Origin: a virus | Lineage: Duplodnaviria > Caudoviricetes | Strand: one strand, 5' to 3' | Virus record (IMG/VR): IMGVR_UViG_3300017560_000002 | Span: 3,587 to 67,586 of that record | DNA length: 64,000 nt | Shown here: in pieces, positions 5,800 through 21,507 of the stretch | How the letters are laid out: every line of letters starts with the position of its first letter | Numbering within the stretch: the first letter of the stretch is position 1 | The notes under the pieces: generated by a model | The model's database searches: none | Told to the model about the DNA's origin: nothing | The model's input: the letters and a program-made list of their open reading frames with translations, nothing else | Translations under genes and position numbers: made by a program

Positions 5800-5823
5800 T
5801 CTCTCCTATCTCGGGAGGGGGAT

Positions 5824-5850
5824 CAAAGCACGCCCCGTGGCGGGCGTCAA
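5824..5850 (-). terminator. Probable intrinsic terminator
   Basis: Minus strand GACGCCCGCCACGGGGCGTGC followed by TTT, right after the stop of 5847..6185. Confidence 0.45.
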
Positions 5851-6185
5851 GCCGCTGCGAGAGGGGGCGGGCAGGTCACGACGACGGGGAAGTACGCACG
5901 TTCCTTGCGATCGTAGCGCAGGACCCGGAATTTCGAGTGGTATCTCGACAGCTTGGCGGCCATCGCCACCAGTTGAAGGTGATCGCCGACGATCAACAGG
6001 TAGTCGCGCTCGGAATTGAAGCGCCGCGCCGCCTCGTCGATGCTGTAGTCTGTGGGGGACGGAATTCGCTCGTCGTCGATTTCGTCGGCGAACAGGTACT
6101 TGGCGCTGACGTACCGGATTTCACCATACCGCTCGGCGTCGGAAATGTCGTCGTTGGTGGGATTTACGGCCCAGACAGTGCTCAT
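5847..6185 (-). CDS. Hypothetical protein
   Basis: ATG 6185 with CCGAAATAGGAG leader. Confidence 0.7.
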   Translation of the reverse strand: MSTVWAVNPTNDDISDAERYGEIRYVSAKYLFADEIDDERIPSPTDYSIDEAARRFNSERDYLLIVGDHLQLVAMAAKLSRYHSKFRVLRYDRKERAYFPVVVTCPPPLAAA

Positions 6186-6332
6186 AGCGGCATTCCTCCT
6201 ATTTCGGTTTACCACCGGCCCGACTAATTCGATCGTAGACGGGGGGCGTCGTTCGATCGTTGACTAGCCGGGCCGGCAGTCCAGTACGGGGCGGATCGGC
6301 CTGCGGGGAAGACCCGCCCCGGCCCGAACTCG

Positions 6333-6770
6333 TTACGCAGCGTCCTTCTTGCTGGCGCGCTTCGCAGTCTTCTTCGCGGTCTTCTTGGCCGCCTTCTTGG
6401 CGGCCTTCGGCGCGGCCTTTTTCACGGCGGCGGGCGCGTCGGCCTCGATCGGAACGTTGACGCGCTGCTCGAGCGACTTGATCGTCAAGTCGCCGATGGT
6501 GACGGCCTCGCCGCGACGAACCCTGCCACGCAGCGAGTTGCCGATCGCCATACGAAACTGGCCGTTGTTGACGTAGTCCTGCCGGTCCATCGGCAGCTTG
6601 TTGGCGCGGACGACGCTCTCGAGCGTCTTGCCCTGCGTCAAGAGCAGGGTCAGCGCGTTGGCGACGGCGTCACCGTTGCTGACGACGGTGCGGGCGTTGC
6701 CGCGCGAGTCCCTGATGCGCGCCTTGCTGTATTCATACTTCGAGGCGTCGATGGTGGTCGTGTCGTTCAT
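6333..6770 (-). CDS. Paralogous-domain protein A with a histone H1-like Lys/Ala tail
   Basis: NNGQFRMAIGNSLRGRVRRGEAV; tail KKAAPKAAKKAAKKTAKK; own promoter. Confidence 0.8.
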   Translation of the reverse strand: MNDTTTIDASKYEYSKARIRDSRGNARTVVSNGDAVANALTLLLTQGKTLESVVRANKLPMDRQDYVNNGQFRMAIGNSLRGRVRRGEAVTIGDLTIKSLEQRVNVPIEADAPAAVKKAAPKAAKKAAKKTAKKTAKRASKKDAA

Positions 6771-6827
6771 TGTCGCTCTCCAAACAAGTTCCCCGGATCA
6801 TTCCGGGTACGCACGCAGGTTGTCGAT

Positions 6828-6856
6828 ACCAAAGCACGACGCGCGGTCCGCGTCAA
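6828..6856 (-). promoter_or_regulatory. sigma70-like extended -10 promoter
   Basis: TTGACG-N17-TTTGGT with TG at the extended position. Confidence 0.5.
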
Positions 6857-6936
6857 TCACTCGGAAGAGTTACCCTCCGGTTGTACTTAATTCCGCCCCG
6901 ACCCTGAAATTCCAAGGCCGGGGCGGTAGTCGGGCC

Positions 6937-7518
6937 TTACGGCCAGACTACTTCGTGGCCCTTGCGGATGCGAGCCCGCAAGCGGTTGGCGATGTTCATG
7001 CGCGCCATGCCGTTGTTGAGATCGTTGTAACGGTCGGCCCACACGTCGTTGGCCTTGGCGAAGCGCCGCAGCAGGACGCGGTCGATCCGGACATTACCGT
7101 CCTCGTCTTCGACGGTGACGTGGTCCGAAATCTGCTGCGACAGGTCGTCGCCGCAACGGTCGTGGAACGGGCGATAAGCCTGCTTGTACTTCTTCTTGAC
7201 GAGCGAGCCGCCCTCGTTTTCCTCTTCCTCGTCGCCGGCCTCGACTTCGCCGTCCTCGTCGCCTTCGCCCTCGTCGTCCTCGACGACCTTCTTGGGCTTC
7301 GCGGCCTTCTTGGGCGCAGCCGCCTTCTTCGCGGCCTTCTTGGGCGCGGGAGCGGCGGCGTTCATCTTCTCGATCGCCAGTTCGACGGCCACCGACCCGG
7401 AGGCGTGGGACGCCAGCAGGCGATCGCCCAGACGGACTTCGACTTCGTTCTCGACGACGTCGAGCGTGAAGCCCAGCTTCTGGGCCTTCTTGACGGTGTT
7501 GTGGTGGATGCGGGCCAT
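6937..7518 (-). CDS. Paralogous-domain protein B with basic PKKAA repeats and an acidic tract
   Basis: ATG 7518 with leader; NNGMARMNIANRLRARIRKGHEV at the C-terminus. Confidence 0.8.
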   Translation of the reverse strand: MARIHHNTVKKAQKLGFTLDVVENEVEVRLGDRLLASHASGSVAVELAIEKMNAAAPAPKKAAKKAAAPKKAAKPKKVVEDDEGEGDEDGEVEAGDEEEENEGGSLVKKKYKQAYRPFHDRCGDDLSQQISDHVTVEDEDGNVRIDRVLLRRFAKANDVWADRYNDLNNGMARMNIANRLRARIRKGHEVVWP

Positions 7519-7561
7519 TTCGGTATCTCCTATTTCAGGGTTGGCAGGTCGGATGAAGGGA

Positions 7562-7747
7562 TCAGGCCGCCTTGGCGGCCTTCGGGGGGAGCCACTGAAT
7601 GTTGATCTCGGGGACGACGCCCTCGAACTTGCCGACGACGCGGCCACGACGGCCATTGAACCGATAGACCTTGCTGACGACGACGCTGTCGAAAAGCTCG
7701 CGCGAAACGCGGAAGGTTTCACGGTCATGGTCTCGGATGATCAGCAT
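7562..7747 (-). CDS. Small hypothetical protein
   Basis: CCCGCGACATAGGAG leader and promoter upstream. Confidence 0.65.
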   Translation of the reverse strand: MLIIRDHDRETFRVSRELFDSVVVSKVYRFNGRRGRVVGKFEGVVPEINIQWLPPKAAKAA

Positions 7748-7787
7748 TTCGGACTCCTATGTCGCGGGCTTCCCTGCCCGTAAAGAG

Positions 7788-7816
7788 AGAATACCACGCC
7801 GAACGGTTCCGCGCAA
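7788..7816 (-). promoter_or_regulatory. sigma70-like extended -10 promoter
   Basis: TTGCGC-N17-TATTCT. Confidence 0.65.
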
Positions 7817-7835
7817 CAGGAAACGTTCGGCGTGG

Positions 7836-7850
7836 TTAACGCCGGGTTAA
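7836..7850. promoter_or_regulatory. CtrA-type box
   Basis: TTAA-CGCCGGG-TTAA. Confidence 0.75.
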
Positions 7851-8119
7851 TCCTCGTCGTCGGTGACGATGTCGACCAGCGGAAAGTCGGAAAGACCACG
7901 CAGGGTTGACGCCAGAGGACAGGCGTTGTCGTCGCAGGCATGCGACCAGTGATCACGGAACAAGACGGTCGGCAACGCCGTCAGACCGTCGAAAATTCCC
8001 GGCAATTCGTTGCGACGATGGCGGAGCCACACGCCGCCGATCAGGGCGTAATGGACGCCCCGATGAAACACGACGCGATCGGGGCGGAACTGCAGGACGG
8101 GATGGACGGTGGCGGTCAT
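7847..8119 (-). CDS. Hypothetical protein
   Basis: GACATAGGAG leader and promoter upstream. Confidence 0.65.
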   Translation of the reverse strand: MTATVHPVLQFRPDRVVFHRGVHYALIGGVWLRHRRNELPGIFDGLTALPTVLFRDHWSHACDDNACPLASTLRGLSDFPLVDIVTDDED

Positions 8120-8149
8120 CAGTTTCTCCTATGTCATAACCGAAATGTA

Positions 8150-8178
8150 AGTAAAACACGGGAGGAACTGCGCGTCAA
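8150..8178 (-). promoter_or_regulatory. sigma70-like extended -10 promoter
   Basis: TTGACG-N17-TTTACT. Confidence 0.6.
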
Positions 8179-8357
8179 GTGTCGTCCGAACGGTCCCGCC
8201 AGCGCTTGTGGCGACGGACGGCGCTGTCAACGGCAGCGCTGCCGTAAGGCGTTTCTCGTCCGTCCTCTTGGGCCAGCTGAATTCCGATGGCCTTCCAAGT
8301 CATTCCGGCTTCCCGAAGAGCCATGGCGCGGTTGACGTCGATCGCCGGGCTAGGCAT
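8175..8357 (-). CDS. Small HTH-like protein, paralogue of 19094..19378
   Basis: DVNRAMALREAGMTWKAIG..LA..DGR. Confidence 0.55.
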   Translation of the reverse strand: MPSPAIDVNRAMALREAGMTWKAIGIQLAQEDGRETPYGSAAVDSAVRRHKRWRDRSDDT

Positions 8358-8736
8358 CGAGTAGCTTCCGGTAGTAGTTCATCAGAAACCGATCGGATTG
8401 TGCCTTGATCGAATGGTCCACCGCCGCGCCTTCCTCGCTGATGCGAGCGACGGCCATCCGGTTTGATTCCTGTCGGCGGTGGACGCAGGCCGTAAATACA
8501 ACGCCACTGTCCATTAACGGCGCGACTTTAGCTGCAGTTTCTCGCGCCACGTAGCCGACGGGTGCGCCGTGCAGGTCACACAGGCGAAGGGCGTTGCGAT
8601 CGTTCGGGTTTTCAAATTCCCGCTCGATCATTAGCGGCTGGCCACCGACGAGCGCGGCGCGGGCTCTACGGCCGGCGACGCCGAACAGCCCGGCACCGCG
8701 AATCTGGCTGATGAAGACTCGACGCAGGGCGGTCAT
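8350..8736 (-). CDS. HIRAN-domain protein
   Basis: REFENPNDRNAL..VGYVARETAAKVAPLMDSG fits the HIRAN pattern. Confidence 0.75.
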   Translation of the reverse strand: MTALRRVFISQIRGAGLFGVAGRRARAALVGGQPLMIEREFENPNDRNALRLCDLHGAPVGYVARETAAKVAPLMDSGVVFTACVHRRQESNRMAVARISEEGAAVDHSIKAQSDRFLMNYYRKLLDA

Positions 8737-8996
8737 GACGTCACCGCGAATTCGACGATTTCCACCGGCTCGCAGACTTCCCCTTTATGACTGTATGGTC
8801 CGCGTGCCGGCTCGATCGTGCCATCGATCAGGAAATTGCAAGCCGACTGGTGACCGTCGACCGTTCCCGCCAGTTTGGTTGCGCCGTCAAACGACGTGCG
8901 GACCCAGTACGAGCCGTGCGCGAAGAACGGAGCGCCGATATGAACGTCAAGGAACGCCACCGTGCGCCCGGTCCGGGTGAATGTCGCCCCGTTCAT
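8733..8996 (-). CDS. Hypothetical protein
   Basis: Stop/start overlaps with both neighbours. Confidence 0.55.
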   Translation of the reverse strand: MNGATFTRTGRTVAFLDVHIGAPFFAHGSYWVRTSFDGATKLAGTVDGHQSACNFLIDGTIEPARGPYSHKGEVCEPVEIVEFAVTS

Positions 8997-10060
8997 TTGC
9001 CGATCCTCTTTTTGCAGTCCTCGTCGATCTGGCGGTTAAGACTGACTTCGTCGCCGGCCTCGTGGCCTGACCAGTAAGCGTTCTGGTCGAGCCGGTTGGC
9101 CTCGCGCTGCTCCCGTCGCCTCCACTGTTCAGCCGCCCGCTTCTCGGCCTTCTTCTCGCGTTCCAGACGCTTGCGCTTCTGCGCCTCCGTTTCGGGCTTC
9201 GACGGTTCGCTCTGCTGGCGAGCAAACTCCTGCGCCCGATCGAGCGAGTAGCCGTACGACATGTACGTCGCGACTTCGTGACCGTGCGGGCCAACGTTGG
9301 CGTCGTAGATCGCCTGTCGTCTGTCGCTTGCGGCTCTAGCCTCCGCCGCGTGCCGCTCTCGGTTGCGAGCGGTGGTCCCCGGCTCGAGGCCCTTGATCAG
9401 GTCGTTGTTAAGGTCCTTCTCACGCTGGACCACGTCACCAAGGTACAGGACGAGGCCGGTGCCGGGTGCCGCGCCCGGATGGCTACTCCGGGCCTTCTCT
9501 TCGCGTTCCTTCTTCGCCTGCTCTTCAAGCAGCGCCTTAAATTGCTCTTCGAGCCGCTCGTGCAGGCGGTACGCGCAGCCTTCCTTGAAGGAATGCGCCT
9601 CGCGCGTGAAATACCGGGCCGGGTCGTTACCGACGAAGTTCCGCGCCAGCCGCTCGATAGCCTCGAGCAGATACTCGAACATCAGCGACACGGTGGTCAC
9701 GTTGTCGACCCGGCCGATCAGGTCGTAGCCGTCGAAAATCTTCTGGCCTCTACCGACCTTGAAGCGGGCGAGCGCGACGCAGTAATTCACTTCCGCCACG
9801 GTCTTCATCAGGTGGCGCTGCCACGAGTAGACCTGCCGCTTATTTACGGCCGTCCGTTCACGCTTGCCGCCTTCGCTGTTCGTAGCGCCGCCGCTCGCCT
9901 CGACGGCAGCCATCGACAGGTTGTGTTCCGCCAGAATGCGCTGGACGTGGCTGGCGGCGAGAGCCGCCTCCGCTTCGGTGGCTCCCGCATCAGTGGTGAG
10001 AGCCATCAGCTTCCGGATGCGTGAAATGACAGCTTCGGACGCGGTGCTTTGCTGGGTCAT
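8993..10060 (-). CDS. DUF2786-like domain protein
   Basis: N-terminal VISRIRKLMAL....ATEAEAALAA...RILAEHNLS. Confidence 0.75.
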   Translation of the reverse strand: MTQQSTASEAVISRIRKLMALTTDAGATEAEAALAASHVQRILAEHNLSMAAVEASGGATNSEGGKRERTAVNKRQVYSWQRHLMKTVAEVNYCVALARFKVGRGQKIFDGYDLIGRVDNVTTVSLMFEYLLEAIERLARNFVGNDPARYFTREAHSFKEGCAYRLHERLEEQFKALLEEQAKKEREEKARSSHPGAAPGTGLVLYLGDVVQREKDLNNDLIKGLEPGTTARNRERHAAEARAASDRRQAIYDANVGPHGHEVATYMSYGYSLDRAQEFARQQSEPSKPETEAQKRKRLEREKKAEKRAAEQWRRREQREANRLDQNAYWSGHEAGDEVSLNRQIDEDCKKRIGK

Positions 10061-10097
10061 TAGGCAGGTCTCCTATATCGGAAGAGGATTTCGGGGT

Positions 10098-10706
10098 TTA
10101 CCACTCGACGGCTTCGCCGCGCTTGATCTTGGCGCGCAGACGGTTGCCGATATTCATGCGGATCAGGCCCGGATTGGGCAGTTCGAGGTACTTGTCGTTC
10201 CAGACGCCGTTCCGCTCGGCGAATTCCCGGAGCGCCGCCGGCTCGTATTCCGTCAGCCGGGCCTTGATGTCGTCACCCTTGGCGGGCTTCGGCGCAACCA
10301 CCGGGCTGACGCCGTCAACTCCGGAGCCGCTCTTGTTAACTCCGGGGCGGCTCCCGTCAACCGGACGGACGGGCAGCGACAGGCGCGGATCGGGCACCCA
10401 GCGGCAGATGCGCTGGTCCCACACGGTGCCCGGCGGGCGTCCCTTCTTGGGCTTCTTCTTGAGATTGTCGAGCCGAATACGCTGTGCGGCCTTGAGTTCG
10501 GCCTCAAACGCCAGCGTGGCTTCGTCCTTGACCTTGGGCTCTGCCGACAGCCGGTAAGGCTCGACGGGCGTGCCCTTGATTGCTTCGCGGCAATCGTCGA
10601 GCCACGCTCGCAATTCCGGCGACATTGTCGGCCAGTTGTCGAGTTCTTCCTGTGACGGGTAGGTGGAGCGGTAGACCAGAATGCTGCTGCGGGATGGGCC
10701 AAACAC
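10098..10706 (-). CDS. Paralogous-domain protein C
   Basis: C-terminal PNPGLIRMNIGNRLRAKIKRGEAVEW; leader upstream; exact start uncertain. Confidence 0.75.
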   Translation of the reverse strand: MFGPSRSSILVYRSTYPSQEELDNWPTMSPELRAWLDDCREAIKGTPVEPYRLSAEPKVKDEATLAFEAELKAAQRIRLDNLKKKPKKGRPPGTVWDQRICRWVPDPRLSLPVRPVDGSRPGVNKSGSGVDGVSPVVAPKPAKGDDIKARLTEYEPAALREFAERNGVWNDKYLELPNPGLIRMNIGNRLRAKIKRGEAVEW

Positions 10707-10748
10707 GGCGGGTATCTCCTATTTCGGGACGGTAAAGGCCGTGGCTCA

Positions 10749-10778
10749 ATGTAACCACGGCCTAGGGGTATCGGTCAA
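10749..10778 (-). promoter_or_regulatory. sigma70-like promoter
   Basis: TTGACC-N18-TTACAT with preceding GTGG. Confidence 0.5.
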
Positions 10779-11116
10779 GATACCTCGTCGCTCGCCGACA
10801 TCACGAAGGCCGGGCGAATGACGAGGCCCAAGATCAGATCGCCTTCCTCGTCGAGGAACCGGAAGCAACGGACCGGGCTGGTTTCGGCATCGTCCTCGAC
10901 CCAGTGGCCGGTTGCGGCGATCGACTGGCCTTCGTCGTCCTCGTAGTGGCCGCTCTCGACGATCTCTTCCTTGATGGCGAGCGACTTAAGGCGCTCGATC
11001 GTCGCCGGCTCGACGTCGAGCAGGGCGACGCCGTACGGCGTGATGTCGTCGAAGAAGTTATCGAACTTAAGGTCCGTGTTGATGTTCCGGTAGTTAGCGA
11101 ACCAGACTTCCGTCAT
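10775..11116 (-). CDS. Acidic hypothetical protein
   Basis: CGACATAGGAG leader. Confidence 0.65.
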   Translation of the reverse strand: MTEVWFANYRNINTDLKFDNFFDDITPYGVALLDVEPATIERLKSLAIKEEIVESGHYEDDEGQSIAATGHWVEDDAETSPVRCFRFLDEEGDLILGLVIRPAFVMSASDEVS

Positions 11117-11174
11117 TTCGGTCTCCTATGTCGGGACGAAGAAGGCGGCGCGGATGACGCGCCGCCGGTTGGGA

Positions 11175-11381
11175 TCAGTCGATCGCGGTGACGGACACGG
11201 CGTCCAGATAGCCCAAGGTCGGGCGGCGGTTAAAGTGGAGGACGCCAACGCCGCCGTCGCGAATGTCGCTCTGGATGCGCGCAACGGCGCTCGGATGTAG
11301 CTGAAAAACCAAGATCAGGGTGGACATCGGGGCGTCCATGACCCAGTCGCCAGCGGAGGAAGTGACGCGGAATTTCGGCAT
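11175..11381 (-). CDS. Small hypothetical protein
   Basis: Leader and promoter upstream. Confidence 0.6.
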   Translation of the reverse strand: MPKFRVTSSAGDWVMDAPMSTLILVFQLHPSAVARIQSDIRDGGVGVLHFNRRPTLGYLDAVSVTAID

Positions 11382-11421
11382 TTCAGGCTCCTATGTCGCG
11401 GCCGTGATCGACCGTACACGA

Positions 11422-11450
11422 AGTATACCACGCGACGGCCCGCAATTCAA
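11422..11450 (-). promoter_or_regulatory. sigma70-like extended -10 promoter
   Basis: TTGAAT-N17-TATACT. Confidence 0.7.
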
Positions 11451-11489
11451 GCGTCGCGGAATTCCGTCGAAGGGAACCTGTTGCCGTGG

Positions 11490-11504
11490 TTAACGCCGGG
11501 TTAA
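11490..11504. promoter_or_regulatory. CtrA-type box
   Basis: TTAA-CGCCGGG-TTAA(C); identical to the 7836 box. Confidence 0.75.
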
Positions 11505-11659
11505 CAAACGATGGTGGCTAGTGCAGCGGTGGTCTTCGGACTCCCTGAATGCCTCGCCCAGTTGCGTGGCTTCCCGTCTGGCAGCCATGGCGCGTTCCGC
11601 CCGGCGCTGAATTTCGGAGAGCTCGAGCAACACGTCGAGCGCGATTGCTTCCCGGTTGA

Positions 11660-11866
11660 TCACGACGCCAGCGCCGCAATTCTGCCGACCATGGTGATGG
11701 CGACAAAGCCGATGCCGGCGACGAGGGCGGTCACCAACGCAAACAGCCACGTCGGCATGACGTACAGCAAGTCGGGCTGCTCTGCGGCCTTGCGATGTAC
11801 TTCCGCGCGGGCACGACCCAAGCGGACGTGCGCTGGAATTAAGGCGGGTGCGTTCTTCATATCCAA
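11660..11866 (-). CDS. Small protein with a C-terminal TM helix
   Basis: WLFALVTALVAGIGFVAITMVG; ATG 11860 is a possible start. Confidence 0.5.
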   Translation of the reverse strand: MDMKNAPALIPAHVRLGRARAEVHRKAAEQPDLLYVMPTWLFALVTALVAGIGFVAITMVGRIAALAS

Positions 11867-11905
11867 GCTCCAGACAGGAACACTCGGAGGGAAGCACGCA
11901 AATCG

Positions 11906-11920
11906 TTAACAGGAGGTTAA
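11906..11920. promoter_or_regulatory. CtrA-type box
   Basis: TTAA-CAGGAGG-TTAA(C). Confidence 0.7.
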
Positions 11921-12327
11921 CGCCCGGCAGCTTCGCGCGCCAGCCTTTCCGCGCGTCTCTGCTGGGCTCCGGAGAGCTTCTTCGGTGGCCGGGTAGCTTT
12001 GGGCGCGGCCGGCTTTGCAGGCGGCTCGTCGGCCTTCCTTGCGGCTTTCTTGACCGCCTGCACGGTCGGTGGCAGCGACACTGCGACTTTCACCCGATCG
12101 ACTTCCGCAGCCGACCGACGGTCCGGTGTCTGAATTTCAGGCGGTGACGTGCCGACGTGGCGCAGGAATTCGTTGGTGACACACTGCGTCCGTCCGTTAT
12201 CCCAGCCTACTTCCGAGACTTCCAGACCGGGAACTTTGATGGTGCCCGTCATGCCGCTGTGCGTCGAGCCGATGTCGTAGACGCGGTCACCCTTCTGAAA
12301 AGCCGGCGGCGTCTTATCCTTCGGCAT
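11917..12327 (-). CDS. Hypothetical protein with an SH3-like N-terminus and a basic tail
   Basis: FQKGDRVY..G.I....EVGWDNG; Lys/Ala/Pro-rich C-terminus. Confidence 0.55.
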   Translation of the reverse strand: MPKDKTPPAFQKGDRVYDIGSTHSGMTGTIKVPGLEVSEVGWDNGRTQCVTNEFLRHVGTSPPEIQTPDRRSAAEVDRVKVAVSLPPTVQAVKKAARKADEPPAKPAAPKATRPPKKLSGAQQRRAERLAREAAGR

Positions 12328-12958
12328 GGCAAAATTCCCCGAGTTCCGCCTCGCCCATGCCGCAACGACGGCACAGACCTAGCACGACTTCGCCGTTCCG
12401 ATCCTTGATTGCGTCGGGTGCGTCCGCGTCACCGGTCTGGTACAAGTGGTGGCGGCCGGACGGTGGCGGCGATCCCTCCAGAATGGCCGTCTGCGGACCG
12501 GCCTGCTGGTCTTGGTACTTGCCTTCGTACGGCAGCGCCGTGCGGTGGTCCAGCTGGTGGAAGACGATCTGGGCAATTCCGGAGCCGGCTTCGACGTATA
12601 TCGGCACGGCCGGCGGCGTCTGTCCTCTGTCCGGTAGACGCGGTGGCCCGTGGTAAGTGATCTCGAGCGTCAGAAAGCCACGCCAGCCGGGCTCGATCAC
12701 AGTGTTCTGGACGAACAGGCCGCGACGCGCCCAAGTGCTCTTGTCGTGTACGACGGCGAGCACGGCACCCGGCATGTTGAAGCGCTCGACAGTGCTGGCT
12801 AGCACGAACTGACCGGGAAGCAACACGAGCTTCTCGGCAACGCGCACGTCGTAACCGGCCGGTCCCAGCCCGAAGGTCACGCCATTGTGGCGCGTCCTCT
12901 GGCAGAACGGTTCGACAGGCTGGAGCGCCTGAATGGTCTGTGCCGACAGGACCGTCAT
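12314..12958 (-). CDS. dcd: dCTP deaminase (trimeric dUTPase superfamily)
   Basis: AGYDVR, KSTWARRG, TVIEPGWRGFLTLE motifs. Confidence 0.85.
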   Translation of the reverse strand: MTVLSAQTIQALQPVEPFCQRTRHNGVTFGLGPAGYDVRVAEKLVLLPGQFVLASTVERFNMPGAVLAVVHDKSTWARRGLFVQNTVIEPGWRGFLTLEITYHGPPRLPDRGQTPPAVPIYVEAGSGIAQIVFHQLDHRTALPYEGKYQDQQAGPQTAILEGSPPPSGRHHLYQTGDADAPDAIKDRNGEVVLGLCRRCGMGEAELGEFCHAEG

Positions 12959-13536
12959 TGCTCGCTTCCCTCCCGCATCAGTTCCTTACGGAGGCACTCG
13001 GCGTCGGCAGCTTGAATTTCAGCCGCCCGCGCCTCGACGGCCGCTTCGGAGAACAGCCCTTCAAACAGGGCGCGTACGTCCTCCGGACTGCGGGCCGGAT
13101 CGGTCGGCTCCATTGCGAAAATCTCCAGAATTTCGCCCGCCTTGCCCTTCACCGGCCGGTTATCGATCAACTTACCGCACGCCAGCGCGTCCATATAGAT
13201 GGCGGCGTTGGCAAGGATGAAGCAACCGTGGTGAATGCCGGTCTTGGTGTCGTAGTCCTGCCCGTCCTTGAGAGCCTTGACGTGGCGCTCGAGCGCTTCG
13301 ATGTAGACGAGCGCGAGCACCTTTGCGACGCGGTAATTGTACGGCCCGTATTTGCCGGCACCGTTACCCATGCCGATCGCGGTAAAGACTTCGGCGGTGG
13401 CCGGCACGACGCCGAGCGGAACCTTGAGGTCCCCGAGACCGTCCTTAGGGTTGACGCTGTTCTCGGCGACGGGGCGCAGGCCGCTTACGTATCCGGGCGC
13501 GCGATATGGCGCGGCCGTTCTCTGGTTGTCCGACAT
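12955..13536 (-). CDS. DUF5664-type dATP/dGTP diphosphohydrolase
   Basis: NPKD..G..KVPL.VVP..GAGKYGPYNYR..ALERH...G.DYD..TG.HH...LAN pattern. Confidence 0.75.
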   Translation of the reverse strand: MSDNQRTAAPYRAPGYVSGLRPVAENSVNPKDGLGDLKVPLGVVPATAEVFTAIGMGNGAGKYGPYNYRVAKVLALVYIEALERHVKALKDGQDYDTKTGIHHGCFILANAAIYMDALACGKLIDNRPVKGKAGEILEIFAMEPTDPARSPEDVRALFEGLFSEAAVEARAAEIQAADAECLRKELMREGSEQ

Positions 13537-13601
13537 AGATGTGCTCTCCTAGGGCGCGGGCCGATAGGAGAGCACGACGCGGGGCACCACGTCAAGGAGG
13601 G

Positions 13602-13814
13602 TCAGACCCAACGCGGCTGGAACGTATCGACGTGGTCGCCCTCGTAGAAGTAGGCCGACATTCCGTCCCGATTGACGCGCACCCGGTGCTCGCCGGCAGA
13701 GCTCTCGACGACGGCTTTCCAGCCACGGGCGCGAAGGAGCGCCGCGACGGCGCGCGCCTCGCCGCGAGTGCGGAACACGTCGCCGTCGAGGACTTTGGTT
13801 TGCTTGGTGGTCAT
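13602..13814 (-). CDS. Small hypothetical protein
   Basis: ATG 13814 preceded by CAGGAG. Confidence 0.55.
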   Translation of the reverse strand: MTTKQTKVLDGDVFRTRGEARAVAALLRARGWKAVVESSAGEHRVRVNRDGMSAYFYEGDHVDTFQPRWV

Positions 13815-13837
13815 GGCAGGTCTCCTGTTTCGAGGGA

Positions 13838-14017
13838 TTAGCGGCGGTTCAGGCCCAGCAGGTCCAGCCCGCGATAGGTATATTCCGCCGTCAGGTTGGC
13901 GAACAGGCGGACGCCTTCGACGTCCATAGCGTCGCGCGCGTCGTTCGCCCGGTTGTGGGCGAAATCGGCAAGCCTGAAAGCTTCGGCGGCATCGGTGATG
14001 GTGGCGGCGCGGGGCAT
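13838..14017 (-). CDS. 59-aa hypothetical protein (not in the ORF track)
   Basis: MPRAATITDAAEAFRLADFAHN...; leader at 14024-14038 and promoter upstream. Confidence 0.6.
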   Translation of the reverse strand: MPRAATITDAAEAFRLADFAHNRANDARDAMDVEGVRLFANLTAEYTYRGLDLLGLNRR

Positions 14018-14057
14018 TGCGGTCTCCTATGTCGCGGGCGAAATTGCCCGTAAACGA

Positions 14058-14086
14058 AGGAAACCACATTGCCCGGTGGAATTCAA
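14058..14086 (-). promoter_or_regulatory. sigma70-like extended -10 promoter
   Basis: TTGAAT-N17-TTTCCT. Confidence 0.55.
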
Positions 14087-14105
14087 GCGCAGCCGATAAG
14101 CGTGG

Positions 14106-14120
14106 TTAATGGCTGGTTAA
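14106..14120. promoter_or_regulatory. CtrA-type box
   Basis: TTAA-TGGCTGG-TTAA(C). Confidence 0.75.
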
Positions 14121-14338
14121 CCGTTATGCTCCTGCTCGACGCCCCGCAGGAGCGCCGCGAAGCTGGGGTACACGACGCCTCCGCGACGATAAGTCGCACG
14201 ACCCTTGTCGTCTTTGTCAATGTACGCATGACCGTCGCGCCGACCGTGCCAGTCGAACAAAAGCACTTCGGCACCGTGAAGCCGGACGACGTGGCCCGCG
14301 CCACGTGCGAAGTATTTTGACAGGGCGTACCTAGCCAT
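14117..14338 (-). CDS. Hypothetical protein
   Basis: ATG 14338 (MARYALSKYF) preceded by AAAGGA. Confidence 0.5.
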   Translation of the reverse strand: MARYALSKYFARGAGHVVRLHGAEVLLFDWHGRRDGHAYIDKDDKGRATYRRGGVVYPSFAALLRGVEQEHNG

Positions 14339-14361
14339 TGTGTCGGTCCTTTCCGGGCGGC

Positions 14362-14571
14362 TCAAGCCGCCCGATCCTCCGCCGCGACTTTGCGCGCGGC
14401 TCCAGCCATATACTCGCCGAGCGCGGGATTGCGGTAGGTGGCTTCCGCCAACAGACCACGCACGGGCATTTTGACGAGTTCTGCCGAGCGCTCGAACAGC
14501 GCGGGCAGAACGTACGCGTCGGCGACGGAAACGTTGAAACGGGCGGCAAAGGCGGCGAACTCTTGGTGCAT
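14362..14571 (-). CDS. Hypothetical protein
   Basis: ATG 14571 preceded by GGAGGG; promoter upstream. Confidence 0.6.
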   Translation of the reverse strand: MHQEFAAFAARFNVSVADAYVLPALFERSAELVKMPVRGLLAEATYRNPALGEYMAGAARKVAAEDRAA

Positions 14572-14606
14572 AACACCCTCCTGCGGGCGGAATTGCCCGA
14601 AACAAT

Positions 14607-14635
14607 ACAAAATCACGCTTCGAGACGGAATTCAA
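14607..14635 (-). promoter_or_regulatory. sigma70-like extended -10 promoter
   Basis: TTGAAT-N17-TTTTGT. Confidence 0.55.
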
Positions 14636-14654
14636 GCGTGGCCGATAAACGTGG

Positions 14655-14669
14655 TTAACGATGTATTAA
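14655..14669. promoter_or_regulatory. CtrA-type box
   Basis: TTAA-CGATGTA-TTAA. Confidence 0.75.
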
Positions 14670-14896
14670 TCGCTCGCCGTCTCGACGTTGCTGACGGCGT
14701 CGTCGAGGCTGGACACGGCGCTTTCAAGCTCGCTGATAGCCTGATCGGCGCGGTCCCCCGCGTCGCCGTTCTGCAGGTTCTCGGGCATGTTGTCGCGGTA
14801 CTCCTGCTCTTCCTGCAGACATTCCTCGATCGTTTCCTTGGCGGAGTTGATCTGCTCGAGCGCCTCTTGCAGGCGCTTACGTCGGTCCTTGTTCAC
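14666..14896 (-). CDS. Coiled-coil hypothetical phage protein
   Basis: MNKDRRKRLQEALEQI..EEQEYRDNMPENLQ; GTG start preceded by GGAG. Confidence 0.7.
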   Translation of the reverse strand: MNKDRRKRLQEALEQINSAKETIEECLQEEQEYRDNMPENLQNGDAGDRADQAISELESAVSSLDDAVSNVETASD

Positions 14897-14910
14897 TGTG
14901 CTCTCCTGTG

Positions 14911-15093
14911 TCAATACGGGCATTCGTAAGGCTCGGGAACGCGCACGCCGCGCGCCTCGATCAGGTCCTGCATGTCGACCCACTCGGCTTCAAGTTCGGC
15001 CTGCTGTTCGGCGCGAATTTGAGCGGGCGTATCGACGCCGTAAAACTCGCAGGCTTCGGTGTAGGTGTTGAAGTGGTCGGCCCAAGACGCCAT
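14911..15093 (-). CDS. Small hypothetical protein
   Basis: CGACATAGGAG leader. Confidence 0.65.
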   Translation of the reverse strand: MASWADHFNTYTEACEFYGVDTPAQIRAEQQAELEAEWVDMQDLIEARGVRVPEPYECPY

Positions 15094-15149
15094 CGAAGTC
15101 TCCTATGTCGCGGGCGGGCGGCTCCAAGAGCCGCCCGGTGGTTTGAGGG

Positions 15150-15470
15150 TTACGAGAAGAAGATGCCGCGCATCTTGTTGAATTTCGGGTCCCGATCGTC
15201 GCGACCGAAACGAGCCGTTTCCATACCGGCCCGGCGACCGGTGAGGCAAAGCGTGATCGAAGCCGGCCACGCCTTGGTGCCAGTGTTGTACCGGCCCGAC
15301 ACGCCGTAGGCATTGATGCGGTTTTCGTCGGGGGTCGTCCACCGGCTCGCCCTCACACGGCGGGTCTCGCGTCCCAGCGTGACTTCGACAGTGCCGTCCT
15401 CAATGGTGCCAAACGAATGGTTCTCGACGGTGCCGTTCGGCTCGAAGGTGGAGGCGTTGATTGCGGTCAT
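15150..15470 (-). CDS. Hypothetical protein
   Basis: Leader variant CGACATAGGGA and promoter upstream. Confidence 0.65.
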   Translation of the reverse strand: MTAINASTFEPNGTVENHSFGTIEDGTVEVTLGRETRRVRASRWTTPDENRINAYGVSGRYNTGTKAWPASITLCLTGRRAGMETARFGRDDRDPKFNKMRGIFFS

Positions 15471-15511
15471 CGGATCGTCCCTATGTCGCGGGCGGAAGAG
15501 CCCGTGCAGAA

Positions 15512-15540
15512 ACTATACCACGGGACGACTTTGGGTGCAA
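15512..15540 (-). promoter_or_regulatory. sigma70-like extended -10 promoter
   Basis: TTGCAC-N17-TATAGT. Confidence 0.7.
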
Positions 15541-15579
15541 TGTTGGAAGAGTTCCGGCGAACAGGAACTTTAGGCGTGG

Positions 15580-15594
15580 TTAACAGATCGTTAA
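15580..15594. promoter_or_regulatory. CtrA-type box
   Basis: TTAA-CAGATCG-TTAA. Confidence 0.75.
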
Positions 15595-15773
15595 TCGACT
15601 TCGCCGTCGTCGGACGCCAGCACGCGCGTCGCGTGAACGGCCTTCCAGCTTTGCCGATGGCGGTCCACGACAAACGCCGAGCAGCGCGCAAGCGGAGACA
15701 TTCGCAGGAATTCGGTAATCAGCAGGCGACGATCGGTCGGACCCGCGCCTTGCTCGAGCGCCTTAGTCGTCAT
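15591..15773 (-). CDS. Small hypothetical protein
   Basis: Stop/start overlap with the upstream gene. Confidence 0.5.
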   Translation of the reverse strand: MTTKALEQGAGPTDRRLLITEFLRMSPLARCSAFVVDRHRQSWKAVHATRVLASDDGEVD

Positions 15774-16050
15774 CAGGTATTCGGAGCACGTCGCGAATTT
15801 TCGTCACGTCGTTGGACAAGGCGATCGCGGCGACGGTCATCTGGTCGACGGCCTTTTCCGCCCGATCGACGAAGTCCAGCACCGGCTTAAGGTCTTTCCC
15901 TTCGATTTCGTAAGTCGTCCAGCGGTGGCCGCAGCCCTCGCATCTTCGCCGACGGCGGATAGTTCTGGCCGTCGTGCGACTGTCGATAACCAGACTGCGA
16001 TGCTCGACGAGGCAACCGGGGCACGACGGCCGCTGTCTGTCTTTAGGCAT
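15763..16050 (-). CDS. NrdR-like zinc-ribbon protein lacking the ATP-cone
   Basis: CPGC..SLVIDSR...IRRRRRCEGCGHRWTTYE matches the NrdR N-terminus. Confidence 0.75.
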   Translation of the reverse strand: MPKDRQRPSCPGCLVEHRSLVIDSRTTARTIRRRRRCEGCGHRWTTYEIEGKDLKPVLDFVDRAEKAVDQMTVAAIALSNDVTKIRDVLRIPDDD

Positions 16051-16053
16051 CAG

Positions 16054-16446
16054 TCATCGCCTCGATTTAAACCGAAACTGGTTGGAACAACTAGTTGAAC
16101 AAAACTGCTGCATCGCGCTCTCGCCGTATTTGATGGCGAGAAACGCCTTGCCGCAATTGACGCAGTTGCGCGGATGCTTGCGCCTCCGGGTCCCGCCGGT
16201 CAGGTAGTAGCGGACCGTATCTCGGTCGATCTTCATAAACCGGGCGATGCGGAGTAACGCCCAGCGATGCTCGGAATATAGGTGCTGAATAACGGCGGCG
16301 CGGGCCTTCCTTTGCTTCAAGTAACGCAGCGGTCCGGACACCAGCACTTCGCTCACCGTGACCTTGTGGCTCTCGCAGATCAGCTTGATTCCCGCCATCG
16401 TCTGCCTGTGCGGCGTCACGACGACGGTGTTTTCATCGATCGACAT
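16054..16446 (-). CDS. DnaA C-terminal-like HTH fused to a Cys4 zinc finger
   Basis: ARAAVIQHL..LLRIARFMKIDRDTVRY (compare DnaA LP.IG..F.GRDHTTV); CVNC...CSTSC. Confidence 0.55.
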   Translation of the reverse strand: MSIDENTVVVTPHRQTMAGIKLICESHKVTVSEVLVSGPLRYLKQRKARAAVIQHLYSEHRWALLRIARFMKIDRDTVRYYLTGGTRRRKHPRNCVNCGKAFLAIKYGESAMQQFCSTSCSNQFRFKSRR

Positions 16447-16469
16447 ACTTTCGCCCCCTAAAGTACGTG

Positions 16470-17432
16470 TTACTGCGGCAATGGGCTCTGGAGTGGCTTG
16501 CCGTCGGCCTTCTCGCGTATCTTCTGCATGTTGGCCCAGTTGGCCTTGAGTTCGGCCTCCGTCGCAACGGACACGTCGATCGAATGCGCTTCCCCAAGGA
16601 CGAGCATCGTCAGCATCGTGCCGCCGAATTCGTTGAGAAGATCGCCAGCCGGGCGGGCGTAGACGTAGTCGGCCAGTTGCATTGCGTGCGACTTCGAGCA
16701 ACCGCACGCCTGCGCGAGCTCCAGCGCTTCTTCCAGAAATCTGAATACGCGCTCCTGCTTGTCGATCGCCCGTTCCCGACCGAAACACTGGTGCGACCAG
16801 TCACGGGCGCGGAACTGGAGCGCCCGCAGCGTCTGCATCGCGTCGGCGCGCAGCCATAGCAGCCGGCGGCGCAAGGTCTCCCACGGCTCGCGCGCCTTGC
16901 CCGCGCCGCTGTCTTCTCCGTCAAGGATTTTGGTCGCTTCCCGGCAGATCGCGTCGGCTCCGTGGTCGTGGCCGCGCCACCACGCCGGGTGCGCGCCATC
17001 AGTGGCGTCAAGCTCCGGATTATCGACGAGCATTCCGGGCGTCGGCGGAAACGGCGTCGCCAGATCGTCGGACGGGATTTCGTCTTCTTCGCTGGCTGCC
17101 ATCGACGCCATGTGTTCGGTAAGAGCGGCGAGATACTCGGCGTTCGTTTCGCACCAGTCCGCCATGCTCCGTGCTTCCTTGTCGCCGGTGTAGATCGACG
17201 CGTAGGTCCGCAGCTTGCGGCTGATGTGGTGGAGCATGTCGACGATCTCGTGATTTGCGATCGTCACCGACTGTCCACCGTTAGTGTAGCCGTAGACGGA
17301 CGCCATCGCAAGCCTGCGGTAAATCGCCTGCGTCTCGGGCTGCAGCGTTTCCCAGTCGAGCGCCGGCCGGCCCGACGGCGTCGATATGCTCGCCAGATAG
17401 ATGGCTTTCGCCTTGTTGCTAATGTGGTCCAT
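16470..17432 (-). CDS. Mosaic protein with a C-terminal MazG-like NTP pyrophosphohydrolase domain
   Basis: RVFRFLEEALELAQA...NEFGG ExxE pattern. Confidence 0.55.
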   Translation of the reverse strand: MDHISNKAKAIYLASISTPSGRPALDWETLQPETQAIYRRLAMASVYGYTNGGQSVTIANHEIVDMLHHISRKLRTYASIYTGDKEARSMADWCETNAEYLAALTEHMASMAASEEDEIPSDDLATPFPPTPGMLVDNPELDATDGAHPAWWRGHDHGADAICREATKILDGEDSGAGKAREPWETLRRRLLWLRADAMQTLRALQFRARDWSHQCFGRERAIDKQERVFRFLEEALELAQACGCSKSHAMQLADYVYARPAGDLLNEFGGTMLTMLVLGEAHSIDVSVATEAELKANWANMQKIREKADGKPLQSPLPQ

Positions 17433-17433
17433 T

Positions 17434-17907
17434 TCAGCCCTCCGCCTTTCTGATCATGCCGTCAGTGACGATCATCTGGAAGCCCTGCGGGTCGACTTCG
17501 ACGACGTACCGAAGCCCGCCGCGCGTCGTACGATAGGCGACCAGCACGACGCCCGTGTACCGCGCCTCGCCTGCGTACTTCTCAACCAAGTCCATCCGGC
17601 GATACTTGGCACCGGGGGTTTCCCCGAAACCCGGAACGGGTCCACCCAAGTCGGGCTTCGGACCGCGCGCGTAGGATTCCGATTCCACGGCCGGAGCCAT
17701 GAACATCGGCCACGGCTCTTCGCGTCGCAGACACCGGAAATAGGCGTCGCTGGCCTGTCGAGCCGTGTTGCCCGTCAGTTCCATCCACCGGATCATGAAA
17801 AACATTTCTTCGACGGCCTCCGCCATGTCGCGCATGTTTTCCAGCAGGGCGGTGCCGCGATAGCCGCCGGTTTCCTTGTCGACGCAGTGGTCGTAACTTC
17901 CAGCCAT
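17434..17907 (-). CDS. Hypothetical protein
   Basis: Tightly packed in the operon. Confidence 0.6.
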   Translation of the reverse strand: MAGSYDHCVDKETGGYRGTALLENMRDMAEAVEEMFFMIRWMELTGNTARQASDAYFRCLRREEPWPMFMAPAVESESYARGPKPDLGGPVPGFGETPGAKYRRMDLVEKYAGEARYTGVVLVAYRTTRGGLRYVVEVDPQGFQMIVTDGMIRKAEG

Positions 17908-17911
17908 CGTC

Positions 17912-18166
17912 TTATTCCTTCATTGCGTCGTTGACGCGGGACACGACTTCGTCGACGTGCTCTTTGACTTCATACACGAGTTCACCCATGCTACCGGAGC
18001 ACAAGATGTGGGTGCGCGCCACGTTATCCGGACCAGTGATCGCCTTAATCGCCAGAACGCGCGACGGGTTTAAATACACGCCGTGACTTACCACGGAGCC
18101 AACAGATTTCCAGATTTCGGTCACGTTAAACAGGCGCATAACCTCTACTCCATAAACGCCAGACAT
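17912..18166 (-). CDS. Hypothetical protein
   Basis: Operon packing; start uncertain. Confidence 0.55.
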   Translation of the reverse strand: MSGVYGVEVMRLFNVTEIWKSVGSVVSHGVYLNPSRVLAIKAITGPDNVARTHILCSGSMGELVYEVKEHVDEVVSRVNDAMKE

Positions 18167-18345
18167 TTGTCGGTTTGGCAGCGGGCGTGTATATGTTGCT
18201 TCCTACCAACGAGCCGGGCGTAGAGCTTGCCCTTACACTTAGGACAGTGCGTCCAAGCGTGGTCGATCTTCCGTTCCTTCATCTTCTCTTTCAATTTCAG
18301 AACCGCCTGAATTGCTTCCATCTGGGCTTCGAGATCGAGGGGCAT
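18145..18345 (-). CDS. Small Cys-rich putative zinc-binding protein
   Basis: CPKC...C....C. Confidence 0.6.
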   Translation of the reverse strand: MPLDLEAQMEAIQAVLKLKEKMKERKIDHAWTHCPKCKGKLYARLVGRKQHIHARCQTDKCLAFME

Positions 18346-18429
18346 CGGCTTCGTTTCTCTGGCTGCGCTTGACGCGCGGGCGGGGGTTGGGACGTCGAGG
18401 CACCATCGGCCTCGTCGGCGTGGCGTCTT

Positions 18430-18729
18430 TCACGGATCGGTGTCCTTCAAGAAGCCGATCTCGAGCAGACCGACTAGGATCGGAATTCGTTCTGCGACTT
18501 CCCAGAAATTGCGGGCGGTGATCACGCAGGCGACGGACGACACGAGCGCCAGCAGGAACGCCGCGATCGATCCGGTGCCCACGACAAGCAACAGGCACGT
18601 CGCGCAGATCACGGCGAGCACGAGCGCCATTTTGTAATGCACGAGCATCTGGAACGAATCGTCGAGGACCCAGTCCCGCACTTCCGGGTGCGCCTGATCG
18701 AGCAGCACCTTAAGCTGTTCTCTGGTCAT
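18430..18729 (-). CDS. Two-TM membrane protein
   Basis: Two hydrophobic stretches; ATG 18729. Confidence 0.55.
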   Translation of the reverse strand: MTREQLKVLLDQAHPEVRDWVLDDSFQMLVHYKMALVLAVICATCLLLVVGTGSIAAFLLALVSSVACVITARNFWEVAERIPILVGLLEIGFLKDTDP

Positions 18730-19097
18730 TTCTTCTCCCGCTGCCTTTTCTGCCAGTCTTCGACGTATTTCTTGTCGTGCCACAACGGATTGCCCACGAA
18801 TTCGGCCCGGTAGGCGGCGCGGGCCTGTACGTGCGACACCACCTTGCCACCGATCACGTTTGCCGACGAGCCGGGCTCGCTGTTTGGTCCGTACCAGCCG
18901 GTACGCTTCTCGTCGTCGGACAGCGGCCGTTCCTCGTCGTTGGGTCCGATTTCCGACGCTCCGCAGACGTCGCAGTGGTACGGGCCACATTGTTGAAATC
19001 CGACGCCGACGTCCACAAAGTCGGCGCGACAGGGCGTCCGACAATAAGGGCACGGCTCGGTCGGCTCGTGATCGCCGTAAGCGTAGCCGCCGCTCAT
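18726..19097 (-). CDS. Zinc-finger hypothetical protein
   Basis: CPYC and CDVC pairs; ATG 19097. Confidence 0.6.
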   Translation of the reverse strand: MSGGYAYGDHEPTEPCPYCRTPCRADFVDVGVGFQQCGPYHCDVCGASEIGPNDEERPLSDDEKRTGWYGPNSEPGSSANVIGGKVVSHVQARAAYRAEFVGNPLWHDKKYVEDWQKRQREKK

Positions 19098-19378
19098 TTC
19101 GGGCCTCGTGCGCGTCGCTGACGCGGGGCGTCGACGATCGGGTACTGCCGTGCCCAGAGCTCGGCAGACGGCGGAACGATGTCGCCGGCTTCCTCCCACG
19201 TACGACAGGCATGGCGCACGGAATCGTGGTGATACGCCATCCGCCGGCCCTCGCTCTTGGCGAGGATCGCCCCGATCTGGCCGTAAGTGTATCCACGCTC
19301 AAACAGCGCCATGGCGCGCTCGACGTCGATCTGCTTGCGGGTCGTCGTTCGCCCTTCGGTTACGTAGGTTACTGCCAC
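19094..19378 (-). CDS. HTH-like protein, paralogue of 8175..8357
   Basis: DVERAMALFERGYTYGQIG..LA..EGR; leader upstream. Confidence 0.6.
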   Translation of the reverse strand: MAVTYVTEGRTTTRKQIDVERAMALFERGYTYGQIGAILAKSEGRRMAYHHDSVRHACRTWEEAGDIVPPSAELWARQYPIVDAPRQRRARGPK

Positions 19379-19388
19379 GTCGTCTCTC

Positions 19389-19718
19389 CTATGTCAGCTG
19401 GCGCAGTTGCTTCCAGACATTCTTACAAGCCTGCTCGGCCTCATTAAACGACGCCCAAGGTCCGCCGTCAATAGGGATCGTGTTGTTGCTTCCAGTCTGG
19501 CCTAGCTTGCGGTAAGTCGCCGTATGGCCGACCCACTTCGCCTTTTCAGCGTCGCTCCAAGTCGAGACGCCCGGCTCGTACATGATTGACCATGAATACC
19601 CGCCGTGGATCGCCTGCCAGATACGTACTTGGTGAAAGTGAGATATGGCGGCGTTGAGCGGACGGCCGTCCGGCCCGTAAGTCGTACTGAACCGGTGCGT
19701 CACGTCCTCAAAGCGCAT
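19389..19718 (-). CDS. Hypothetical protein
   Basis: ATG 19718; operon packing. Confidence 0.55.
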   Translation of the reverse strand: MRFEDVTHRFSTTYGPDGRPLNAAISHFHQVRIWQAIHGGYSWSIMYEPGVSTWSDAEKAKWVGHTATYRKLGQTGSNNTIPIDGGPWASFNEAEQACKNVWKQLRQLT

Positions 19719-19971
19719 CGGGCTTCTTCTCCGGATCGATCGTAAACGTGAAATCCGGATGGTCACCGAGGACCAGAAACCGCTCGGACGGCTTGTAGTA
19801 CCGTTTCTTTTTGACGAAGTCAGCGAGCCTGTCGCGCCCTCCGGAGACCAGAGCTTCGAACCAGTCAACGTTTTGAAACGCGATCGGAACTCCGCCTTGG
19901 AAGCAATAACCGTCAGTCAGCTTCCGGGGCAGCATGTAGACGCGAACGAACGTGCGGCTTTCGTCAGTCAT
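19708..19971 (-). CDS. Hypothetical protein
   Basis: ATG 19971 preceded by GGAGA. Confidence 0.55.
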   Translation of the reverse strand: MTDESRTFVRVYMLPRKLTDGYCFQGGVPIAFQNVDWFEALVSGGRDRLADFVKKKRYYKPSERFLVLGDHPDFTFTIDPEKKPDAL

Positions 19972-20713: not shown

Positions 20714-20723
20714 CGTCGTTCTC

Positions 20724-21436: not shown

Positions 21437-21471
21437 ACGCGGAATCCTTAAACCAATGTGGAGTACGCGGG

Positions 21472-21500
21472 ACTGTAGCACGCCGCGCGGGCGTCGTCAA
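21472..21500 (-). promoter_or_regulatory. sigma70-like extended -10 promoter
   Basis: TTGACG-N17-TACAGT. Confidence 0.65.
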
Positions 21501-21507
21501 AATGGAA

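Follow-up and report, generated by a model that had tools for sequence, protein, structure and literature searches.

Promoters of the phages phiCbK, Cp1R7A-A1, and Delta are targets of CtrA, a response regulator of Alphaproteobacteria that binds them and regulates their activity, and phages that carry CtrA sites have been described under the term “lytic deferment” among the phiCbK-like phages, Delta, MMDA13, and the Rhizobium phages Palo and Pasto (Mascolo et al. 2022, PMC9437464). The coupling of phage expression to the CtrA pathway was thus established in 2022 and is not new in principle. TTAACCAT is a known CtrA motif (PMC6180460), and the repeat that overlaps the predicted CtrA sites of Sphingomonas phage MMDA13 is TGCGTTAACCAT (PMC9437464). 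Among cellular promoters, the full activating CtrA sites of Caulobacter start near −35 to −39 and the activating box of Rhodobacter sphaeroides ends 23–24 nt from the start site (PMC4287350, PMC6180460). The exact boxes before the phiCbK genes gp005 and gp018, both activated by CtrA, are followed by a −10-like element after ∼10–12 nt. The subject of this analysis is a set of TTAA-N7-TTAA boxes in an uncultured member of the Caudoviricetes. The window analyzed comprises 64,000 bp, bases 3587–67586 of the 67,586-bp record IMGVR_UViG_3300017560_000002, which carries a 41-bp direct repeat at its end. An initial annotation of the window had proposed that the boxes are helically phased upstream of early promoters and place these under the control of host CtrA, and had pointed to reports of CtrA sites in alphaproteobacterial phages, which are on firm ground (PMC9437464).

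Seven exact boxes are present in the window, at the positions originally listed (7836, 11490, 11906, 14106, 14655, 15580, and 62411). The one-mismatch copy at 62956 is likewise real and is one of six such one-mismatch sites. The enrichment statistics that the initial annotation called for were obtained by shuffling: whole-window shuffles average 0.09 boxes and never exceed 2, compared with the seven observed, and shuffles restricted to intergenic DNA (17.3 kb) contain a mean of 0.05 compared with six. The assertion that TTAA is otherwise uncommon in this DNA was wrong, as the window contains 110 TTAA tetramers and ∼90 are expected from the base composition. With the tetramer count near expectation, the enrichment signal resides in the pairing at N7. 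Among TTAA-Nx-TTAA dyads with x between 0 and 20 there are seven copies at N7 and at most one at every other spacing, 15 other A/T tetramer dyads at N7 occur in 0–1 copies each, and TTAA-N7-TTAA is the highest-ranked spaced dyad of the genome. No box was found in the remaining 3.6 kb of the genome, beyond the window, or in 50 other phage loci with a GC content of at least 55% (555 kb).

Every box lies within the replication and nucleotide-metabolism arm, which consists of minus-strand genes (∼800–25,600 and 59,400–64,000 of the window), and the boxes were therefore read on the minus strand. All seven exact boxes are located at gene junctions, and in six of them the upstream gene ends in a TAA stop codon that falls inside the distal TTAA, which leaves no spacer or terminator between the end of the gene and the box. 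These six are the boxes at 7836–7850 (stop codon of gene 7847–8119), 11906–11920 (11917–12327), 14106–14120 (a 73-aa gene, 14117–14338), 14655–14669 (14666–14896, phrog_4068), 15580–15594 (15591–15773), and 62411–62425 (62422–62691); the remaining exact box is at 11490–11504. The one-mismatch box (62956–62970, minus strand) has TTTA as its distal half, and a terminator-like hairpin of 16 bp (62976–63021, minus strand, z = −3.0) is located directly upstream of it. On the coding strand the motif reads TTAAC-N5-(C)GTTAACCA(C/T)G, which is the CtrA consensus including a TTAACCAT-like flank. The eight half-site positions are invariant across the seven copies and the spacer columns hold only 0.3–1.4 bits. 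A C follows the proximal TTAA in all seven boxes, CCA(C/T)G is present in six out of seven, and the CA(C/T)G flank is on the promoter-proximal side in six out of seven; the flank of the box at 62411 is TTAACCATG. Conserved half-sites and flanks around a free spacer are, judged by sequence, the dyad–spacer pattern of CtrA sites.

The boxes share several properties with those of the phages of Mascolo et al. (2022): the canonical TTAA-N7-TTAA dyad occurs far above chance, in noncoding promoter regions and ahead of small genes of unknown function, and the trait was acquired independently in separate lineages. Furthermore, the MMDA13 repeat resembles the proximal half of the boxes found here. They differ from these phages in being dispersed, with one box per cassette promoter over ∼8 kb plus a second site, instead of being packed into a terminal repeat or gap region, in lying 19–39 bp upstream of a separate −35 hexamer, and in belonging to a genome that probably contains 2-aminoadenine (see below). 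Normalized positional entropy for the seven exact boxes is H = 0.80 (0.75–0.83 with the one-mismatch site included), computed from exact matches whereas Mascolo et al. (2022) use a scoring matrix. This is above the threshold of the low-positional-entropy (LPEG) signature (>5 sites and entropy <0.75 in 50 bins), although the boxes do lie in intergenic and promoter DNA as that signature has it.

Boxed cassettes, with that of box 11906 as the exception (see below), have a common design. The distal TTAA is followed by the unconserved spacer, (C)GTTAACCA(C/T)G, a gap of 19–39 nt, a −35 hexamer of the form TTGnnn, a spacer of 17 nt that ends in GTGn, a T-rich −10 hexamer, a short GC hairpin, a conserved ribosome-binding leader, and the start codon. 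All putative promoters named here are on the minus strand. Box 7836 is followed after 19 bp by TTGCGC-17-TATTCT (7788–7816), which drives 7562–7747 (61 aa) and 6937–7518. Box 11490 is followed after 39 bp by TTGAAT-17-TATACT with a TG motif (11422–11450), which drives 11175–11381 and 10775–11116; the operon behind this box also includes a 128-aa protein with a HIRAN domain (8350–8736, minus strand, Pfam 50 bits). Two near-duplicate cassettes contain TTGAAT-17-TTTCCT (14058–14086) 19 bp after box 14106 and TTGAAT-17-TTTTGT (14607–14635) 19 bp after box 14655. The former heads 13838–14017 and then an operon of a dATP/dGTP diphosphohydrolase (PF18909, MazZ-like) and a dCTP-deaminase-like gene (12314–13536, minus strand), a gene pair that is downstream of both the boxed promoter 14086 and the box-less promoter 13595. 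Box 15580 is followed after 39 bp by TTGCAC-17-TATAGT (15512–15540), which drives 15150–15470, 14911–15093, and 14666–14896, and the one-mismatch box 62956 after 20 bp by TTGCGC-17-TAGGGT (62907–62935), which drives 62703–62882 and 62422–62691. The placement of a UvrD helicase operon behind a box was borne out: TTGCCC-17-TTTACT (62352–62380) lies 30 bp after box 62411 and precedes a UvrD/REP-type helicase gene (60752–62326, minus strand), the first gene behind that box. The gaps between box and −35 hexamer in the initial annotation were reproduced at all seven promoters. A strict consensus scan passes promoter 11450 alone, and the other −35/−10 assignments, which concern weak promoters, come from a looser scan together with the alignment of the paralogous cassettes. 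The region between the flank of box 7836 and its −10 hexamer (7794–7835) adopts a hairpin of 17 bp with a U-rich tail behind it (z = −3.7), and the spacer of promoter 62380 (62358–62380) forms a GC hairpin followed by a T run; both overlaps look like overlapping terminator–promoter modules.

The promoters of the phage fall into two classes. The −35 hexamers behind boxes (n = 7) are TTGCGC, TTGAAT (three), TTGCAC, TTGCCC, and TTGCGC. In the box-less promoters (n = 8), which share the GTGn, hairpin, and leader design, they are all TTGAC(G/C). The box-less −35 positions are 5850, 6856, 8178, 10778, 13595, 19471, and 21500, plus one outside the window; an example is TTGACG-17-TTTGAT (5822–5850, minus strand). 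A TTGAC −35 is thus found in none of seven boxed and all of eight box-less promoters (Fisher p = 1.6e-4), both classes coming from a scan that required TTG. A degenerate −35 hexamer combined with an upstream site is what an activator-dependent promoter would look like. If transcription starts 7 nt after the −10 hexamer, the inferred box centers are at −62 (three), −63, −73, and −82 (two). Class I activation is known for CRP at −61.5, −71.5, and −82.5 and for upstream OmpR sites. The boxes resemble such activator sites in their inferred centers, which lie on one face of the helix, and in the poor −35 hexamers behind them; the likeness concerns a possible mode of action and not membership of a family. 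Helical phasing is R = 0.91–0.96 at 10–10.5 bp (Rayleigh p ∼0.003–0.007), which is only suggestive because the cassettes are paralogs, so that seven gaps are not seven independent events, and because the hexamer calls leave some freedom.

Many putative −10 hexamers of the minus-strand promoters across 5800–21500, and also of the sister phage described below (contig L051–L053), have T at the second position (TTTGAT, TTTACT, TTTGGT, and TTTTGT).

The closest relative identified is a 60-kb contig (sister phage G001, 94% complete) whose UvrD protein is 68% identical. Common to both phages are the replication and head modules, a GcrA homolog, and a PurZ homolog. The sister contig contains no box anywhere and no other enriched spaced dyad. 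The promoters before its uvrD gene and before its homolog of 6937–7518 have the same hairpin–leader design, with TTGACA as the −35 hexamer and no upstream motif. Because the sister has TTGACA and no boxes at comparable positions, the boxes were gained in the present lineage, or lost in the sister, along with the change in −35 quality. Lineage-specific boxes fit the repeated independent origin reported for such sites (PMC9437464). The 15-kb region that contains most of the boxes (7562–22787) has no homolog in the sister contig. Among 41 UvrD relatives, no boxes were found in the GC-rich loci and none at all in the five closest genomes. The 355-aa protein encoded at 8993–10060 returned one distant match as a query, and relatives of the dCTP-deaminase-like protein came from unrelated phages. 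A scan of viral contigs for the extended box returned single, mostly AT-rich chance matches and a few unrelated box-dense contigs, and a scan for a word of the hairpin leader returned chance matches alone.

The genome also bears on the probable host. It encodes a GcrA homolog (28402–29064, plus strand, above the Pfam cut-off), a marker of an alphaproteobacterial host, and GANTC is depleted about fourfold in the whole genome (83 observed, 319 expected). The corresponding numbers are 152 and 250 for the sister and 19 and 118 for Ochrobactrum phage OH. The portal and polymerase proteins have their best matches in Rhizobium and Ochrobactrum phages, with Pseudomonas phages nearly level for the portal. 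Together, the GcrA homolog, the GANTC depletion, and the best portal and polymerase matches favor an alphaproteobacterial host. No tRNA genes that might serve as a host clue are present in the phage, no near relatives were found in the isolated-phage collection searched, and the annotation of the tail proteins is uninformative with respect to pilus- or flagellum-dependent adsorption. The minus-strand arm further encodes a family A polymerase and a DUF5906 primase/helicase-like protein, and a plus-strand block encodes the head protease, major head protein, major tail protein, and endolysin.

Gating of the boxed cassettes by host CtrA, the putative binder of the boxes, is the best reading of these data and a fairly probable one. 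It is preferred because of the enrichment, the N7 specificity, the CtrA flanks, the −35 dichotomy, the box-free sister, and the host markers. According to this model, phosphorylated CtrA, a response regulator of an alphaproteobacterial host, would bind to the boxes. The lineage would have put a single box at every one of seven or eight junctions between cassettes, directly after the upstream gene, and the promoter behind each box would have lost the TTGAC −35 hexamer that the other promoters of the phage kept. Given that loss, transcription of the downstream cassettes would probably depend on CtrA and hence be tied to the cell-cycle or motility state of the host. The gated cassettes would comprise small ORFans, the UvrD-like helicase, and the entry to the deoxynucleotide-pool operon. 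The preferred mechanism would be activation from box centers near −62, −63, −73, and −82 on one helical face, rather than repression. The box position varies by whole helical turns, which makes the mode of action directly testable, and a natural comparison is available in the sister phage, where promoters, hairpins, and leaders follow the same design while the −35 hexamers are consensus and boxes are lacking.

Several observations weigh against this model. The activating box overlaps the −35 region in Caulobacter and R. sphaeroides (PMC4287350, PMC6180460) and in phiCbK, its end being ∼23–24 nt from the start site, and no precedent was found for CtrA acting from −62 to −82. The original gating proposal is partly supported, by the CtrA consensus with its flanks, the degenerate −35 hexamers, and a plausible alphaproteobacterial host; its same-face upstream activator geometry departs from the characterized CtrA-activated promoters, in which the box covers the −35. 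The ∼10-bp phasing is retained as a suggestive pattern. Box 11906, which had been described as abutting a weak −35, has no credible sigma70-type −35/−10 pair downstream. The cassettes are paralogous: those of boxes 14106 and 14655 are near-duplicates, boxes 7836 and 11490 are identical over the whole 15-mer, and no close relative carrying the cassettes was found. A terL scan of bacterial genomes returned mixed taxa and misbinned contigs and no usable host taxon. Finally, the genome probably carries 2-aminoadenine (Z) in place of adenine.

A 2-aminoadenine genome is suggested by the combination of a phage-encoded PurZ-type adenylosuccinate synthetase homolog and the dATP/dGTP diphosphohydrolase. 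In such a genome the boxes and the −10 hexamers would be read as Z:T pairs. A Z:T pair leaves the major-groove face unchanged and alters the minor groove. As the boxes are under strong selection, some factor reads them, in that case in the Z form, with CtrA as a candidate. Ochrobactrum phage OH, which has a Z genome, contains no boxes in the 35.3 kb examined of its 41.2-kb record and is, for that reason, uninformative on CtrA at Z-containing DNA. Among 147 restriction enzymes assayed, 53% are blocked or impaired by the presence of 2-aminoadenine (PMC12944874). As a tentative scenario, possible but on balance doubtful, a phage with a Z genome would have evolved sites for the A/T-reading CtrA after the split from its box-free sister, through a weakening of once constitutive TTGACA promoters and the addition of a phased box upstream. 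Should CtrA indeed read TTZZ-N7-TTZZ and activate from −62 to −82, it would be the first host response regulator recruited onto Z-DNA and would act in a mode undescribed for cellular promoters. The probable Z genome also provides a way to ask if 2-aminoadenine DNA can be read by a host transcription factor and by sigma70. The T in place of A at the second −10 position noted above could be linked to the 2-aminoadenine genome.

An alternative that retains CtrA as the binder concerns a second element in the cassettes. The tetramer TTCC begins 13–16 nt after the promoter-proximal TTAA in six out of eight boxes, including 11906 (naive p ∼1e-9; cassettes 7788–7850, 11860–11920, 11422–11504, 15512–15594, 62352–62425, and 62907–62970). 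Boxes 11906 and 62411 have an 11-nt element starting with TTCC in common, and in three cassettes TTCC is the first arm of a TTCC-N7/8-GGAA dyad; as a genome-wide dyad, TTCC-N8-GGAA is weakly enriched. TTCC might serve as an element of the −10 type or be the target of a second factor. With the former, CtrA would bind in the classical geometry: the box would replace the −35 of its own promoter, TTCC(C/T)T would be the −10, transcription would start ∼24 nt after the box, and the downstream sigma70-type promoter would be a second, weak, CtrA-independent promoter in tandem. The distance to TTCC is nearly constant where that to the −35 varies between 19 and 39 nt, and it agrees with the spacing of characterized CtrA promoters; in phiCbK gp005, gp018, and gp020 a −10-like C(T/C)(A/T)(G/T)GGTC starts ∼10–12 nt after the box. 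The cellular CtrA promoters of Caulobacter crescentus and R. sphaeroides, which share the dyad, the TTAAC flank, and a TTAACCAT-like variant with this phage, have the box superimposed on the −35 region. In the phage, a TTGnnn hexamer stands apart, 19–39 bp further downstream, and the spacing of box and −10 agrees with theirs if TTCC is the −10. This is also the sole reading that gives box 11906 a promoter, as TTCCCT begins 13 nt after that box and the ATG (11860) of a 66-aa membrane open reading frame (11660–11860) follows 45 nt after it. The 11-nt element shared with box 62411 points in the same direction, and TTTCCT and TCTCCT are already putative −10 hexamers elsewhere in the phage. On the other hand, TTCCCT lacks the −11 A that is invariant in R. 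sphaeroides CtrA promoters, boxes 14106 and 14655 have no TTCC element at that position, and the 10-bp phasing and the −35 dichotomy would be reduced to side effects. Furthermore, a hairpin is conserved 7–9 nt after the downstream −10 in boxed, box-less, and sister promoters, which argues that the downstream start is real. The classical geometry is a serious but minority possibility, and either geometry predicts CtrA-dependent transcription of the cassettes.

An extracytoplasmic function (ECF)-type GGAAC promoter on the opposite strand was also considered and rejected, as there is no matching −10 in the cassette sequences. Readings that invoke UP elements or integration host factor (IHF) were rejected on position and sequence.

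Next, a phage-encoded protein might bind the boxes as an operator network that is independent of CtrA. The candidates are an NrdR-type zinc ribbon, a protein with a weak helix-turn-helix (28871–29407), and one of the unannotated paralogs at 6333–10706. The NrdR-type protein (95 aa, without an ATP cone; 15763–16050, minus strand; Pfam 45 bits, above the cut-off) is encoded just upstream of the 15580 cassette and ranks first among the phage proteins as a possible rival binder. The phage encodes many unannotated small proteins besides, and a phage protein adapted to Z-containing DNA is conceivable. The boxes are also like phage operator and stoperator networks in that many dispersed copies of one dyad lie at early-arm gene junctions. 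NrdR boxes, however, are unrelated 16-bp palindromes, and neither the NrdR-type protein nor the weak helix-turn-helix protein is expected to read a TTAA-N7-TTAA dyad. None of the six frames encodes an OmpR/PhoB-type winged helix (Trans_reg_C domain). Unlike in repressor operators, the spacer is neither palindromic nor conserved, there is no evident cognate repressor, and in the sister phage neither another enriched dyad nor a replacement palindrome takes the place of the boxes, whose flanks agree with CtrA-specific motifs. A phage-encoded binder is thus improbable.

A further alternative is that CtrA binds the boxes but acts negatively, either by repressing the downstream promoter or by blocking read-through and thereby insulating the cassettes. 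The start of the box inside the upstream stop codon in six out of seven cases, with no room for a terminator, is compatible with such insulation, and in Brevundimonas phage Delta CtrA does repress DELTA_120. In Caulobacter, however, CtrA sites that repress overlap the −10, which no box does here, and weakened −35 hexamers make sense for activation and not for repression; negative action appears decidedly unlikely. That the boxes are functionless and were carried along with a duplicated promoter cassette is very hard to sustain, as the cassettes are clearly paralogous but all eight positions of the half-sites stayed unchanged across the seven copies as spacer and flanks diverged, the distance to the −35 was altered by whole helical turns, and box 11906 persists without the promoter.

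The viral-contig scan also yielded unrelated contigs with dense TTAAC or TTAA-N7-TTAA arrays (L171:1700–2000, L132:7700–7750, L175:1260–1310, and L223:7180–7420), and the L171 array surrounds a TTGACA promoter. These four contigs are candidates for further CtrA-wired phages. A different arrangement is present in contig L144 (62 kb, GC 0.59), where a perfect 15-bp palindrome, TTAACAG-S-CTGTTAA, occurs at 1939, 3727, and 5653, in two of the three cases just upstream of a ribosome-binding site; it resembles a phage operator more than it does a CtrA site. Finally, the 8-bp palindrome GCTCGAGC occurs in 25 copies in the present phage and in 18 copies in the sister, where ∼2 are expected from tetramer counts, an excess that may stem from codon usage.

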